Sequence record: NC_007023.1
Length of the DNA stretch: 64,000 nt
Origin: Escherichia phage RB43
Strand: one strand, 5' to 3'
Shown here piece by piece: positions 18,172-52,200 of the stretch; the first letter of the stretch is position 1, and every line of letters begins with the position of its first letter. The notes under the pieces were generated by a model, which was not told where the DNA came from, did not search any database, and saw nothing but the letters and a program-made list of their open reading frames with translations. The translations under genes were made by a program, and so were the position numbers.

Positions 18172-18248
18172 GGCCCTTTAGCTCAATTGGTAGAGCGAAC
18201 CCCTCATAAGGGTGTGGTTTCCGGTTCGAGTCACGGAAGGGGCCACCA
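18172..18248 (+). tRNA. tRNA with anticodon CAU (Met or Ile2), atypical T-arm
   Basis: 7-bp acceptor stem GGCCCTT/AAGGGCC, D-arm GCTC-AATTGGTA-GAGC, anticodon loop CTCATAA, T-loop TTCGAGT, 3' CCA; T-stem needs removal of A18233 to be canonical. Confidence 0.65.
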
Positions 18249-19125: not shown

Positions 19126-19166
19126 TCAACAGGCTATCTTCGGATAGCCTTTTTTCTGGAGAAACT

Positions 19167-19742: not shown

Positions 19743-20105
19743 ATGAAAGCGTATCAAATTTTAGAAGGTTTACATACTGGTACTATCTATCTGGAAGAAG
19801 GAAACGATGTTCGGATCGTAGTATCAAAAACTCTCGAAGTGGATTCAGTGATCGGAAAATCTCGCGTTGTACCATTCGCAAAACGTGAAGTTGATATTGA
19901 GTTTCAACCGACTGTTAAAGTTGAAGGTGGACAGCACCTAAACGTGAATGTGCTACGTCGCGAAACCCTGGAAGATGCTGTGAAACATCCTGAGAAGTAC
20001 CCACAGTTAACGATCCGCGTTTCAGGTTATGCAGTTCGCTTTAATGCACTGACTCCAGAACAACAGCGCGACGTTATCGCCAGAACCTTTACGGAAAGCA
20101 TGTAA
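19743..20105 (+). CDS. Autonomous glycyl-radical cofactor (GrcA/YfiD-like)
   Basis: C-terminal [58 protein letters not shown] with RVSGY glycyl-radical motif; closely resembles enterobacterial GrcA from memory. Confidence 0.8.
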
Positions 20106-20329: not shown

Positions 20330-20391
20330 AAGAAGCCTCTATGTGGGCGTGTCGTGCGGTGTTCCAGCCAGAAGAAAACTATTAAAATCAA

Positions 20392-20419
20392 GCCGTTGCC
20401 GAAAGGTGACGGCTTTTTT
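20392..20419 (+). terminator. Rho-independent terminator
   Basis: GCCGT...ACGGC hairpin followed by TTTTTT. Confidence 0.6.
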
Positions 20420-20440
20420 CGTTTATATCGAAAATAATGC

Positions 20441-20469
20441 TTGCGTTGAATCCGGCTTTCTTGTATCTT
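20441..20469 (+). promoter_or_regulatory. Conserved promoter cassette (TTGCGT-N17-TATCTT)
   Basis: Same -35/17-nt/-10 architecture as six other copies; spacer contains CCGGCTTT. Confidence 0.5.
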
Positions 20470-20487
20470 TAACCACGTAGGCAAGAC

Positions 20488-20545
20488 AACTTAACTTTGA
20501 GGATGACATTATGAACAACTTAACTTTGAGGATGACATTATGAAA
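20488..20545 (+). repeat. 29-bp tandem duplication spanning RBS and start codon
   Basis: AACTTAACTTTGAGGATGACATTATGAAC (20488-20516) repeated at 20517-20545 with one mismatch; first copy creates a 10-codon mini-ORF whose TGA overlaps the second ATG. Confidence 0.85.
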
Positions 20546-20829
20546 ACTTACAACATGAAAGACCTGGTTGCTTCAAAACTCGTCGTGAAGCCCGTGCGTA
20601 TGTTCTGGCGGCTGGTAAAAATACCTCTGCTGTAATCGACCTGGGTACTGATAAAGAGGTTGGTGCTCGTTGGGCCGCTGTTGTGGTTATCGCTGTCCCT
20701 GTTACCCCTGCTAAAACTCTGGTTCTGGGTGCTCGCAATAGCGAAACTTTGAACACCAGCACTTGCAATAACAGAGGAGTTCATAGTGTCAAAGTGTTCA
20801 AACGTCGCAGCATTGGTGCGAGGGCTTAA
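20540..20829 (+). CDS. hypothetical protein, apparently frameshifted (about 96 aa if one A is added to the AAAA run near 20575)
   Basis: ATG 20540 gives 31 codons; protein-like reading continues in the -1 frame to TAA 20827-20829 with no in-frame start of its own. Confidence 0.4.
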
Positions 20830-22010: not shown

Positions 22011-22155
22011 TAATTCAGATCTGAATGAAGCACTTCGTTCTATTACTGCGAATACTAAACCGAAAAAGAGAACAGGAGAAATCATCTTTTTATGTGTATG
22101 GTATTTTGTGTTTAGCTTTGTTGTTGGCGCTGCATTTGCGAAATGGTTCTTATAA
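22003..22155 (+). CDS. small membrane protein (about 50 aa, GTG start)
   Basis: AGGAGA RBS before GTG 22003; hydrophobic C-terminal helix IIFLCVWYFVFSFVVGAAFA. Confidence 0.4.
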   Translation: MVDNSDLNEALRSITANTKPKKRTGEIIFLCVWYFVFSFVVGAAFAKWFL

Positions 22156-22595
22156 TGGATATCGGATCAGGTAGTCAATACCCATCATGCGCATTGAGCA
22201 ACTTTGCACCGCATCCGTTTACATTCGACGGGGTAGAATGTGCATCAATGGAGGGCTTTTTACAAAGTCTGAAATTTAGCAATCCAGATATGCAAGCGCA
22301 TGTGTGTACTCTGGTCGGTAAAGCCGCGAAGTTCAAAGGCAAAAAGAAAAAATGGTGGACAACTCAAACCCTGTATTGGAAGGGTATTCCGATACATCGT
22401 GAATCCGAAGCCTATCAGATCCTTATCGAAAACGCGTACAATGCGTTGTTCCTGAATGAAGGGTTTCGCCGTGCGCTGAAAGCAACCGGAAAAAGTACCT
22501 TGACTCATTCAATGGGAAAGAATAAGATGAATGAAACGGTGCTCACTGAACGTGAGTTTGTGCGAAATTTAACCCGACTAAGGGATCTGTTATGA
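22143..22595 (+). CDS. NADAR-domain (YbiA-like) protein
   Basis: N-terminal NADAR signature LSNFAPHPFTFDGVECASMEGFLQSLKF; about 150 aa typical of the family. Confidence 0.7.
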   Translation: MVLIMDIGSGSQYPSCALSNFAPHPFTFDGVECASMEGFLQSLKFSNPDMQAHVCTLVGKAAKFKGKKKKWWTTQTLYWKGIPIHRESEAYQILIENAYNALFLNEGFRRALKATGKSTLTHSMGKNKMNETVLTEREFVRNLTRLRDLL

Positions 22596-22856
22596 GTGAA
22601 AAAGAAAGAGTAGAATGCGTGTTCCTGTTCAAAGGCGCGATTAATCCATTAGCGTTACTGTATGCACAACATGCATTACGTTCAACGTTGATTCAGAGTG
22701 TTATCTATAAAGGCAGGTGTGTATTATGTTACCATCGGCGCAAATAACATGGTTGTTATTGAATCCTATGTTAAGGAATGCGCATCAAACGGCGTTGTCT
22801 TTGATAAAGTCGATTTTGATGCTGGGGTAGATGCTGTTTATATGTATAAGGGTTGA
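22592..22856 (+). CDS. hypothetical protein, apparently split at an AAA run near 22709 (about 88 aa if fused)
   Basis: ATG 22592 overlapping NADAR stop; reading continues in +1 frame to TGA 22854-22856. Confidence 0.4.
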
Positions 22857-23073: not shown

Positions 23074-23586
23074 TTGACAGAACTTGATGAACTCATTGAC
23101 AGTTTACGAATAGATTTCGAAGCTGGTAAGTGTTTCTGGGCTAAGAAGATAACCAAAAAGACTGTTGTTGGAGAAGAAGCGGGTTCCGTCCGTCCCGATG
23201 GTTATTGTAGAATCCGGTTCAAAGGAAAATATTACTACCGTCATCGAGTCATCTTTTATGCACGGAATAGGTTTCTTCCTGACGTTGTTGACCACATAAA
23301 AGAGGTTGACAATGGCGACGGTGTAGGTAATATTCAGGCAGCAACTCATCAACAGAATATGATGAAACAAAATATCAATTCGTTGAATAAATCTGGTTGC
23401 CCTGGTGTATCATGGGATACACAAAGAAACAAATGGCTTTCCACTATTAAAAAGGATGGAAAGAATATCTATATAGGTCGGTTTGCGTCTTATGATGACG
23501 CGGTTACTGCCCGAATTAACAAAGAAAAAGAACTATTTGGAAACTTTTATAATGAGCACAAACGCAAAGCCTGTAATTCTGACTGA
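23074..23586 (+). CDS. HNH homing endonuclease with C-terminal AP2 DNA-binding domain
   Basis: HNH motif region GYCRIRFKGKYYYRHRVIFYA...DHI...N...THQQN; AP2 domain GVSWDTQRNKWLSTIKKDGKNIYIGRFASYDDAVTARINKEKELFG; TTG start. Confidence 0.8.
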   Translation: MTELDELIDSLRIDFEAGKCFWAKKITKKTVVGEEAGSVRPDGYCRIRFKGKYYYRHRVIFYARNRFLPDVVDHIKEVDNGDGVGNIQAATHQQNMMKQNINSLNKSGCPGVSWDTQRNKWLSTIKKDGKNIYIGRFASYDDAVTARINKEKELFGNFYNEHKRKACNSD

Positions 23587-24181
23587 TATTGACGGGATCG
23601 CCGTAAAATGGCAGTCGGGGTTGCCGTTCTTTTTGTCTAAACACAATATGCCTACTGATATTGCTCTGGACATGGTCACCGATGAAAGATTTCGTGATAT
23701 GACCGAAATATTCGGGTGTGATCACCAACTGGCTAAAATCCTGATGGAAGAATATAACAACAGTTCGTTTATTCGCTATCTAAGCGCGTATGACGATGCG
23801 TTAGTTGTGATCAACCGTCTGAAAGCCAAATATGATTTCGTCGCTGTCACGGCGCTGGGAACCACTCCTACGGCAAGTCTGAACCGTATTGCAAACCTGA
23901 ACACATTGTTCCCGTCTGCATTTCGTGAAGTGATGGTCGTCGGGCATGGTGAAACAAAAACACATCGTTACCTGGAAGCGAAAGCCAAATACGGATCGCG
24001 GTTGGTTTGCTTTGTTGATGACCTTGCGGTAAACTTAAACGAGTGTCATAACGTTATCAGTCAGTTGCCGTTATTTCACATGTTGCGTGGTGAACGTGAA
24101 CAACCAAATGTTCCGCACAGTATCGTAAAATCATGGTTTGAAATTGAAGAGAAATTAGATGATCTTATCAATATTGAATGA
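23552..24181 (+). CDS. HAD-superfamily hydrolase (putative 5'-nucleotidase/phosphatase)
   Basis: N-terminal DxDG motif ILTDIDGIA; about 210 aa. Confidence 0.5.
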   Translation: MSTNAKPVILTDIDGIAVKWQSGLPFFLSKHNMPTDIALDMVTDERFRDMTEIFGCDHQLAKILMEEYNNSSFIRYLSAYDDALVVINRLKAKYDFVAVTALGTTPTASLNRIANLNTLFPSAFREVMVVGHGETKTHRYLEAKAKYGSRLVCFVDDLAVNLNECHNVISQLPLFHMLRGEREQPNVPHSIVKSWFEIEEKLDDLINIE

Positions 24182-25682
24182 ACTTGCATCGACTCTGAAA
24201 ACCTCAGAGAAGGAAGCAATTTTAAAACGTAATGCAAACAACCTATTGTTGAAAGAGATTTTCCGAATTACGTACACAAAACAGATTATGTTCTATGTGC
24301 GTAAGTTTCCCCAGGTGGACGGCAAACCAGGAACAACCCCGCTATCAAATGCAATCGCGGACCTGATGTCCGATTTAGCATCGCGGAAGTATACAGGTAA
24401 TGCAGCCCGCGATCGCCTGATGGATATTGTGTCATCAGTAAACGAGAACGATCGCGAAGTGTTGCGCCGTATCATTAACCGCGATCTTGAATGTGGTGCG
24501 GGTACAACTCTGCCAAACCGCGTATGGAAGAAACTTATTCCAGAACAGCCTCAATGCCTCGCTACGCCGTTTAGTGAAAAAGCCTTAAAACGTATTCGCT
24601 TCCCTGCTTACTCTCAGCTTAAAGCCGATGGTGCGCGTTGTATGTCGGATCTGTTAGAAGACCAGATTCGCAAAGCAACCCGCGCTGGAAATGAGTATAC
24701 AGGTTTGGTTGATCTGGATAAGGATTTGAAAAAGATCCGCGAATATCTGGGTTATGATGTTGTGCTGGATGGAGAATTGATTTATGTCCCTACTGAAAAA
24801 GCTGTTATCGAACCTGCAAGCGGGATTCCTTTTAGTCTTGCTGGGTTTATGGATGATGACGACGATGATATTTCTGGTCTTGTGGCAGATGTTCGACGGG
24901 AAACTACCGAGAACGAAACACTGGAAGAAGCGAAACGCGAAGAGGGCAACGGGATTGTAAACAAATCCCTGAAAGGCACTATTAGCGACGAAGAACAGCG
25001 CAACATTGTATATGTTGTCTGGGACATCATACCGTATGAAGTTTATTATGGCGATGCTCCGAGTGTTCAACCGTATTGCGATCGTTTGTCTATCCTGGAT
25101 GGTGCTCTGGCTGGTTCTGGGGTATCGTGTGTTAAGTTAATCCCTTCTCGCGTTGTGTATAACATTGCAGAAGCAAAACTGGATTACAACAACTATCGAA
25201 ATGACGGTAAAGAGGGTTCTATCCTGAAAAATACCGATTTCGTCTGGAAGGATTCACGCGTTGCGGACCAGGTTAAGTTGAAGAACAAAACCCCGATTGA
25301 ACTACGGATCATCGACGTATACGCGCATACCAAAGAACCCCATAAAGTAGGTGGTTTTGTGGTTGAAGACTTATCAGGCGAAGCCAGGACAAACACAGGT
25401 TCCGGTCTGACTGATACAGACTACCGCTATGATGAAGATGGTATTACGCGTGTGTATATCCCGTTAGAAGAACGCGGAGAACTGGATCGCGAATACATCA
25501 TGGCGAACAAAGATGACTATATCGGCGCTATCGTCGAAATGGAAGTTGACGGACTCCAGAAGTCTAAGACGCGTAAGAAGGGCGAACCTGAATACAGTTT
25601 CTTCTTACCAATCATCAAGAAGATTCGACGCGACAAGACCGAACCGGATGACATTCACGTTATCTTTGCAGATTTGTTTTAA
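24159..25682 (+). CDS. 30: ATP-dependent DNA ligase gp30
   Basis: MILSILNELAS...KADGARC (adenylation KxDG)...collinear with T4 DNA ligase; 507 aa. Confidence 0.92.
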   Translation: MILSILNELASTLKTSEKEAILKRNANNLLLKEIFRITYTKQIMFYVRKFPQVDGKPGTTPLSNAIADLMSDLASRKYTGNAARDRLMDIVSSVNENDREVLRRIINRDLECGAGTTLPNRVWKKLIPEQPQCLATPFSEKALKRIRFPAYSQLKADGARCMSDLLEDQIRKATRAGNEYTGLVDLDKDLKKIREYLGYDVVLDGELIYVPTEKAVIEPASGIPFSLAGFMDDDDDDISGLVADVRRETTENETLEEAKREEGNGIVNKSLKGTISDEEQRNIVYVVWDIIPYEVYYGDAPSVQPYCDRLSILDGALAGSGVSCVKLIPSRVVYNIAEAKLDYNNYRNDGKEGSILKNTDFVWKDSRVADQVKLKNKTPIELRIIDVYAHTKEPHKVGGFVVEDLSGEARTNTGSGLTDTDYRYDEDGITRVYIPLEERGELDREYIMANKDDYIGAIVEMEVDGLQKSKTRKKGEPEYSFFLPIIKKIRRDKTEPDDIHVIFADLF

Positions 25683-25708
25683 ATAGCACTTTTTGTTAAA
25701 GAAGCCCC

Positions 25709-25737
25709 TTGCGTAAGTGAGGGGCTTTTGTTATTGT
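25709..25737 (+). promoter_or_regulatory. Conserved promoter cassette (TTGCGT-N17-TATTGT) embedded in terminator hairpin
   Basis: CCCCTTGCGTAAGTGAGGGGCTTTTGTTATTGT followed by leader CATCGAAACGAAACAGACAAAAGGAAC. Confidence 0.55.
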
Positions 25738-51529: not shown

Positions 51530-51711
51530 TCGCGAGATTCCCTTCTTTCATCGTCGATTAGCTGGTCGATGAAATCAACGATGTCATCAAACCAATCTAC
51601 GGCTTCTTGAGCAGAAACCGAACCTTTCCCACTACCACTCATAAAGCGTTCGCGAGCGTCAGCAAACTTTTCGAGTTTTGAATACAGCTTTTCTTTATGT
51701 TCCTGGATCAT
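51526..51711 (-). CDS. hypothetical acidic protein (61 aa)
   Basis: ORF. Confidence 0.45.
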   Translation of the reverse strand: MIQEHKEKLYSKLEKFADARERFMSGSGKGSVSAQEAVDWFDDIVDFIDQLIDDERRESRE

Positions 51712-52200
51712 GATAAATCTACCGTTTTCATGTTAACGTAGGGATCGAAATGTACCACGATGATTGGATAGTCGCCAGTGGCCTTATCAATGATGTCATA
51801 GATGCGCATCCAATCGCCCCCAGCAAGCCCCGCACCAATAAGAGGGGTAACGATAGGCAATTGAACAGGACACGCCTTAGCGCGTTCTACAGCAGATTTG
51901 AAGCATGATTCAATCGCATCATAATCGACTTGTGGGCCTTCACCCCAAAATTTGTATTGGGTGTACGCGTTAAACAGAAGTTTGTTTCCGTCCTGATAAA
52001 CGGAGTTACGCCCCAACTTAGATTGATTGCCCTTCATCGTCATTGCGTCTTCTTTAAACGCACCAGGGATCTTTTTCTTCACTTCTTTGGCGATACCCGC
52101 GCCCATGTTACCAGAAACCAGTTACCACCCCATGAATTAGGTGTACATCGCGATTAAGGAACAGTTCAACCGCGTTACCTTTGATTTCTTTAATGATCAT
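51708..52200 (-). CDS. TARG1/OARD1-like macrodomain protein, interrupted by a frameshift
   Basis: N-terminal 30-codon ORF (MIIKEIKGNAVELFLNRDVHLIHGVV...) then +1 frame MGAGIAKEVKKKIPGAF... resembling the TARG1 CRMGAGIAVLFKKKFG core; frames join if one T is removed from sense GGTTTC or a 7-nt unit from GTTACCA-GAAACCA-GTTACCA. Confidence 0.6.

Follow-up and report, generated by a model that had tools for sequence, protein, structure and literature searches.

Does the short gene lying a few ORFs upstream of the DNA ligase gene of phage RB43 encode a NADAR enzyme, and would such an enzyme protect phage DNA against ADP-ribosylating toxins of the host? The question concerns a 150-aa ORF on the + strand (22143..22595) in the ORF listing of the window, i.e., the 64,000 nt stretch of DNA analysed here, which matches phage RB43 (Pseudotevenvirus, Straboviridae) at 99.9% identity by megablast. 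A first-pass annotation had recognised a NADAR/YbiA signature near the N-terminus (LSNFAPHPFTFDGVECASMEGFLQSLKF; residues 18–45 of the 150-aa ORF, nt 22194..22277) and proposed the product as a counter-measure to DNA-modifying defence toxins.

A conserved gene and its probable start codon

The ORF is a real gene. Its product matches Pfam PF08010 (Phage_30_3) over profile positions 2–138 of 138 (E 2.7e-56; 189.6 bits against a cut-off of 36) as well as PHROG 652 (E 7e-53), and it has 4,794 relatives in a 90%-cluster protein database, with 1,167 clusters at 50% identity. Among phage records, 1,506 contain a homologue. RB43-GVA, a re-sequenced isolate, encodes exactly the same protein (100% identity), and no single-base indels separate the two sequences within 22155..22595. 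Compared with phage Miller, 12 codons of the gene differ and all 12 changes are synonymous, so that the gene is under purifying selection. Rfam and tRNA scans placed no feature overlapping it.

The start codon given by the ORF listing stood up less well. In the RB43-GVA and Miller records the gene is annotated from the second in-frame ATG, corresponding to position 22155 of the window. This ATG overlaps the stop codon of the preceding 50-aa CDS as TAATG (22153–22157), and the first Met of 'MDIGSGS' is invariant across the 41 aligned homologues of alignment A1. The tblastn matches in homologues begin at residues 3–5 of the 150-aa form. Given these annotations, the TAATG overlap and the invariant Met1, the CDS most likely runs from 22155 to 22595 (+ strand; 146 aa plus stop), and a start at 22143 was rejected on the strength of the RB43-GVA and Miller annotations and alignment A1. 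The upstream in-frame ATG and the three codons after it (MVLI; 22143..22154, + strand) are probably untranslated. Residue numbers below refer to the 146-aa form.

The sequence record itself requires some care. Between 18143 and 26592 the window differs from RB43-GVA (HE858210.2) by two substitutions and seven single-base indels, of which six are T deletions and one is a G insertion (20567, 21138, 21159, 21718, 22712, 23047 and 23051). For example, the CDS that follows the NADAR gene, which is 87 aa long and uninterrupted in RB43-GVA, appears here as two overlapping ORFs (22592..22747 and 22698..22856). Since these indels break or shift several small ORFs, small-ORF predictions in the window should be treated with caution.

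Placement within the NADAR superfamily

Searches with the single RB43 sequence were largely negative. Pfam NADAR (PF08719) gave no match at E ≤ 1, and a search of PDB sequences with the RB43 protein alone returned no matches. TIGR02464 aligned with 38 residues (15–52) at E 0.0034, with a score of 17.6 bits that lies well under the cut-off of 73.7. As Pfam keeps the phage clade apart under PF08010, the failure of PF08719 bears on that particular model and not on the superfamily.

A profile built from 57 diverse family members, including T4 gp30.3 (alignment A2), gave a clearer result. When it was run against PDB sequences with hmmsearch, E. coli YbiA ranked top (E 0.008), and profile–profile comparison with YbiA by hhalign gave a probability of 95.4% (E 1.9e-8) over residues 1–117. 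Taken one by one, 10 of the 57 give sub-threshold matches to PF08719, and in each of two fusion proteins the same residues are covered by both PF08719 and PF08010. Fold comparison of the RB43 model also revealed the NADAR arrangement of a helical core with small beta-hairpins at its flanks. The failed single-sequence searches were considered as a refutation of NADAR identity, a reading that was rejected in view of the positive profile- and fold-level tests. The NADAR/YbiA identity proposed at first pass is thus borne out by profile–profile comparison, by fold comparison and by the retained catalytic residues described below. The plain profile search suggested with it failed when taken literally (no PF08719 hit, TIGR02464 sub-threshold) and succeeded at the level of profile and fold, where YbiA was recovered.

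Orthology with T4 AdfN and catalytic residues

NADARs reverse guanine ADP-ribosylation (Schuller et al. 2023, PMC11543638), and their third catalytic residue differs by group, being Glu in YbiA-type proteins, Asp in those associated with DarT1 and His in those of phages (PMC11543638). The phage members have been termed 'gp30.3 proteins' (PMC11125620), after a T4 gene that Johannesman et al. (2025) renamed adfN, for anti-DarT factor NADAR (PMC11825919). In vitro, T4 gp30.3 hydrolyses G-ADPr and leaves T-ADPr intact (PMC11125620), and the purified protein strips ADP-ribose from DarT1-modified DNA (PMC11825919). [quoted passage not shown] E36A, K43A and C-terminal truncation each impair T4 AdfN, and the inactive RB69 allele is truncated and has lost its C-terminal helix (PMC11825919). 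The substrates of phage and DarG1 NADARs include G-ADPr in both DNA and RNA, and exclude C-ADPr (PMC12945103).

By BLASTP, the RB43 protein aligns with T4 gp30.3 from the first to the last residue of both, with 42% identity (E 1e-35). The two proteins share PF08010, are of the same size and consist of the minimal core without an N-terminal extension; they differ at the other 58% of residues, and the RB43 copy falls outside the Tequatrovirus subclade. Pairwise alignment places Glu33 (codon GAG, 22251..22253, + strand) on catalytic Glu36 of T4 AdfN, Lys40 (AAA, 22272..22274, + strand) on catalytic Lys43, and His118 (CAT, 22506..22508, + strand) on T4 His123, so that the phage-type His occupies the position of the YbiA-family Glu. 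The three residues are invariant among the 41 homologues of A1, and in A2, with its 57 members, each is conserved to at least 90%. Loss of catalytic residues, which had been named as grounds for abandoning the NADAR assignment, was therefore not observed.

The same residues can be followed into YbiA. The N-terminal signature segment (LSNFAPHPF...FLQSLKF; 22194..22277, + strand) is aligned to FSNFAAWPIKVDGKTWPTSEHYFQAQKF of YbiA by both hmmsearch and hhalign, with Glu33 and Lys40 falling on its 'SEHYFQAQK' segment. His118 lands on Glu125 of YbiA by ungapped continuation past the hhalign alignment, which covers residues 1–117.

At the other end of the protein, DSSP assignment of the AF2 model gives an alpha-helix at residues 132–145 (22548..22589, + strand), predicted with a pLDDT of about 95 and aligned to the end of T4 gp30.3. 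The model thus presents an intact C-terminal helix, as in T4. The T4 gp30.2 and gp30 homologues lie directly downstream on the same strand, i.e., RB43 30.3 has the same place upstream of 30.2 and 30 as its T4 counterpart. Full-length alignment and this conserved synteny identify the RB43 gene as the orthologue of T4 30.3 (adfN).

Gene neighbourhood and transcription unit

The NADAR gene is part of a long rightward unit whose last genes are 30.2 and DNA ligase. The gp30.2 homologue (23567..24157, + strand) was located by tblastn with T4 gp30.2 (48% identity, 199 aa, E 3e-57), and its counterpart in Miller is described as having a HAD-like domain. The ATP-dependent DNA ligase gene (gp30; 24159..25682, + strand) was found with T4 gp30 (E 5e-99; match at 24159..25676) and is annotated as ligase in Miller and CfP1. 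Just past it is a terminator-like hairpin with a 13 bp stem (25700..25729, + strand), which marks the downstream end of the unit and has an equivalent in the terminator annotated directly after the ligase gene of Miller. The upstream end was placed at a second terminator-like hairpin (20390..20415, + strand) with an 11 bp stem that includes 6 GC pairs and is followed by a T-run. No terminator is annotated there in Miller, so this boundary comes solely from the consensus scan; the one Miller terminator upstream of the NADAR gene corresponds to a weaker hairpin at 19131..19150 of the window.

The first-pass annotation had placed the gene in an accessory island extending from rIII to gp30. The gp30 side of this description held, with gp30.2 and gp30 close by on the downstream side. 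For the rIII side, a tblastn search of the 64 kb window with the T4 protein gave no homologue. Similar searches with T4 AdfA (gp61.2), Alt, ModA and ModB also found no homologues in the window. Compared with T4, two small ORFs and an HNH/AP2-type homing endonuclease gene (23074..23586, + strand; AP2 domain, E 8.6e-4) are inserted between the 30.3 and 30.2 homologues of RB43. Domain scans of the neighbouring small ORFs detected the AP2-type homing endonuclease alone, and nothing related to ADP-ribose. The 3′ end of the endonuclease ORF extends into the start of the 30.2-like gene. The 'HNH homing endonuclease' annotated in Miller lies on the far side of the HAD-like (30.2-like) gene, ahead of the ligase gene, indicating that the insertion site differs between relatives.

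A scan for sigma-70 promoters yielded 11 sites against 16 expected, no better than for shuffled sequence. One candidate for a MotA-type middle promoter, the ATGCTT motif at 20437–20442, was rejected because its spacing is wrong for a clean match. Early expression of the unit is an assumption, since no promoter could be assigned. A short distance downstream of the terminator at 20390..20415 is a 29 bp tandem repeat (20486..20550; 2.3 copies, 97% identity, unit ACAACTTAACTTTGAGGATGACATTATGA) that duplicates the ribosome-binding site and ATG with which the unit's first gene opens, and shows no differences from RB43-GVA.

T4 also has an internal overlapping ORF, 30.3′, which has no counterpart in RB43. 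A 51-aa ORF (22300..22455, + strand) does occur inside the RB43 NADAR gene, in the same relative frame as T4 30.3′ and at a similar offset, and it shows no similarity to T4 gp30.3′ by tblastn (E ≤ 0.05). Judged from these sequences, 30.3′ does not appear to be a conserved overlapping gene.

Upstream of the NADAR unit are a dCMP deaminase gene (PF00383; 17038..17562, + strand) and a gene for a small glycyl-radical cofactor protein (PF01228, E 2.8e-18; 19743..20105, + strand), both of them ordinary T4-like nucleotide-metabolism genes. A Gly_radical domain has been reported for orthologues of T4 vs.6 (2006 five-genome paper). Between these two genes, ARAGORN and Rfam both call a tRNA-Met with a CAU anticodon (18172..18248, + strand), the Miller equivalent of which is on the opposite strand. 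Phage CAU tRNAs of this type have been suggested to be lysidine-modified tRNA-Ile (2006 five-genome paper).

Comparison with other NADAR proteins

The DarG1 NADARs of Geobacter/Trichlorobacter lovleyi (PDB 8bat) and E. coli C7 are the antitoxins of DarTG1 systems. They carry an N-terminal extension (an aligned chain of 219 residues, compared with the 146 aa of RB43), have Asp in place of His at the third catalytic position, and are encoded beside their toxin; RB43 30.3, by contrast, is an orphan. In structural alignment, the RB43 model and DarG1 share 16% identity. Of the traits that define DarG1 proteins (BC4488 family), Asp and the N-terminal extension are absent from the RB43 protein; as to the third, an adjacent darT1, no ADP-ribosyltransferase domain was detected by Pfam in the genes immediately flanking RB43 30.3.

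YbiA (PDB 2b3w; PF08719/TIGR02464 type) differs in having Glu125 where RB43 has His118. Beyond Glu125 its sequence goes on with ...DAYWGDGGHGKGKNRLG..., a stretch that has no equivalent in the phage clade. The RB43 protein therefore has neither the Glu125 nor the DxxWG...G.N.LG motif by which YbiA-type proteins are recognised. In E. coli, ybiA is a chromosomal gene adjoining dinG, rhlE and ybiB.

Two further phage proteins, AdfN-Bas32 and AdfN-Bas60 (T5-like phages and Vequintavirinae), have the same proposed role as that considered here, the neutralisation of DarT1 by guanine de-ADP-ribosylation. They belong to other NADAR clades, were independently acquired and are active in uninfected cells (PMC11825919), while the RB43 protein belongs to the T4/gp30.3 His-type clade.

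Proposed function and alternatives

The RB43 gene probably encodes a functional equivalent of its T4 orthologue AdfN, which would act as an orphan, antitoxin-like DNA ADP-ribosylglycohydrolase against DarT1-type toxins. Its product would be a single-domain NADAR of minimal size, belonging to the His-type clade found in phages. Upon ADP-ribosylation of guanine N2 in phage DNA by a DarT1-type toxin, this enzyme would bind the guanine-linked ADP-ribose and cleave the ribose–base N-glycosidic bond by means of Glu33, Lys40 and His118, thereby restoring guanine and allowing replication and transcription to go on. That it acts on G-ADPr in DNA rather than on T-ADPr, and that it serves against DarTG1, we infer by homology to T4 AdfN, for which guanine-ADP-ribosyl hydrolase chemistry and a counter-defence function have both been demonstrated experimentally (PMC11825919, PMC11125620). 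Both had been put forward in the first-pass annotation and are supported by this work; the hypothesis was correct, and had already been published and demonstrated for the T4 orthologue. The RB43 gene is an orthologue from a characterised family and is not new. It raises no new question, as the family has been described along with its chemistry and biological role.

Several observations count against an AdfN-like role: identity to T4 AdfN is just 42%, the protein by itself stays under the Pfam and NCBIfam NADAR thresholds, and according to the taxonomy lines of its records RB43 stands outside the subfamily Tevenvirinae. The T4 enzyme is also context-dependent, being poor outside T-even infection and giving no rescue from DarT1 toxicity in uninfected E. 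coli (PMC11825919, PMC11125620). This context dependence in vivo, along with the finding that NADARs of all families, including that of T4, also remove G-ADPr from RNA (PMC12945103), would suit a genuine phage NADAR whose main substrate in RB43 is something other than DarT1-modified DNA, such as G-ADPr in RNA or soluble, low-molecular-weight ADP-ribose derivatives arising from NAD-based immunity of the host. Such a preference is unlikely, given that the T4 and T2 genetics reveal a direct, necessary-and-sufficient anti-DarTG1 phenotype accompanied by de-ADP-ribosylation of DNA, that the catalytic residues of RB43 and T4 are identical, and that no neighbouring gene suggests NAD salvage or signalling. 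An N-glycosidase of the YbiA kind, destroying intermediates of the riboflavin pathway as metabolic housekeeping, is very improbable. His118 stands where the YbiA clade has its defining Glu, the YbiA motif beyond that position is missing, and the match to the YbiA-type model is far under threshold and confined to the common N-terminal motif. There are no riboflavin genes nearby, and the protein sits in the gp30.3 clade, in which the T4 enzyme has been shown to act on ADP-ribosylated DNA.

The proximity of 30.3 to alt in T4, where they are three genes apart, might suggest instead that the enzyme reverses or tempers ADP-ribosylation by the phage's own Alt/ModA/ModB-type ADP-ribosyltransferases. 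This is highly doubtful for RB43, where the absence of any Alt, ModA or ModB homologue from the 64 kb window means that the alt linkage is not conserved. Alt and Mod enzymes target protein arginines. The NADAR activities described in PMC11543638, PMC11125620 and PMC12945103 are on base-linked ADPr. As for a chance ORF or decayed pseudogene, this record does contain frame-breaking single-base indels, both in the small genes that neighbour the NADAR gene and in the macrodomain gene considered below, but there are none in 22155..22595. The encoded protein is that of RB43-GVA, it is full length relative to T4 with every catalytic residue in place, and the gene differs from that of Miller purely by synonymous changes; this reading is refuted.

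A putative second ADP-ribose enzyme: the Tk.4 macrodomain

A macrodomain gene elsewhere in the window had been combined with the NADAR gene in the proposal that RB43 carries two mechanistically distinct enzymes for removing ADP-ribose. This gene (51708..52200, − strand), a neighbour of tk, is the orthologue of T4 tk.4, and 2,678 phage records contain homologues. In the window it is split by a frameshift into two ORFs in different frames. The larger (51708..52106, − strand; 132 aa) matches PF01661 at 26.1 bits (cut-off 22) and is missing its N-terminus, the 30 residues of which (MIIKEIKGNAVELFLNRDVHLIHG...) are encoded in the other frame at 52108..52200. RB43-GVA and Buttiauxella phage GuL6 have one intact macrodomain CDS of 162 aa, reading 'HGCNCFCNMGAGIA'. 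Relative to these, the window carries an additional G at four places in a stretch of about 25 bases, every one of them converting TGT to TGGT, around the junction at approximately 52110..52145. The pattern points to a base-calling or sequencing artefact of the record as the likeliest cause of the frameshift, rather than biology. The presence of two ADP-ribose-removing enzymes therefore applies to the phage lineage, in which the gene is intact (RB43-GVA), and not to the window sequence as written.

The intact Tk.4 protein scores 34.3 bits against PF01661. Its best matches among PDB sequences are 5m31/5m3e (E 5.8e-5), 2afc, 2fg1 and 5e3b, with 5m3i matching more weakly; 5m31 and 5m3i are DarG macrodomains. 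In the literature searched, no characterisation of T4 Tk.4 function was found. [quoted passage not shown]

There is a small chance that RB43-type gp30.3 is functionally unlike the T4 enzyme and that, together with an intact, DarG-like Tk.4 macrodomain of the kind present in other RB43 isolates, it would provide the phage with mimics of both DarG1 and DarG2. The difference from T4 might lie in independence from the T-even 'potentiating factor', or in another preference for DNA context or substrate. If this were true, a single phage could resist guanine- and thymine-directed DarT toxins alike by means of orphan antitoxin mimics.

Distribution of gp30.3-type proteins

About 27% of myoviruses carry NADARs (PMC9503650). 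The subclade that contains the RB43 copy comprises proteins from T4-like phages of Klebsiella, Enterobacter, Citrobacter, Aeromonas and Vibrio, at 65–97% identity. The catalytic signature of AdfN thus reaches beyond the T-even phages, into Pseudotevenvirus and relatives on these hosts. The RB43 gene, deposited as a 'protein of unknown function', can be annotated with confidence as a putative AdfN-type anti-DarTG1 DNA ADP-ribosylglycohydrolase, which is of use for annotation generally and for predicting which therapeutic phages may evade DarTG1.

In metagenomic sequences, gp30.3-type domains are also found fused to LGT, BspA-type LRR, FtsW-like and D-Ala ligase-like domains. These partners are heterogeneous and have no ADP-ribose theme, and some of the fusions may be gene-calling artefacts. 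Other proteins, of 290–480 aa, carry gp30.3-type NADAR domains in tandem, with two to three matched stretches each (P0129, P0171, P0210, P0242 and others).
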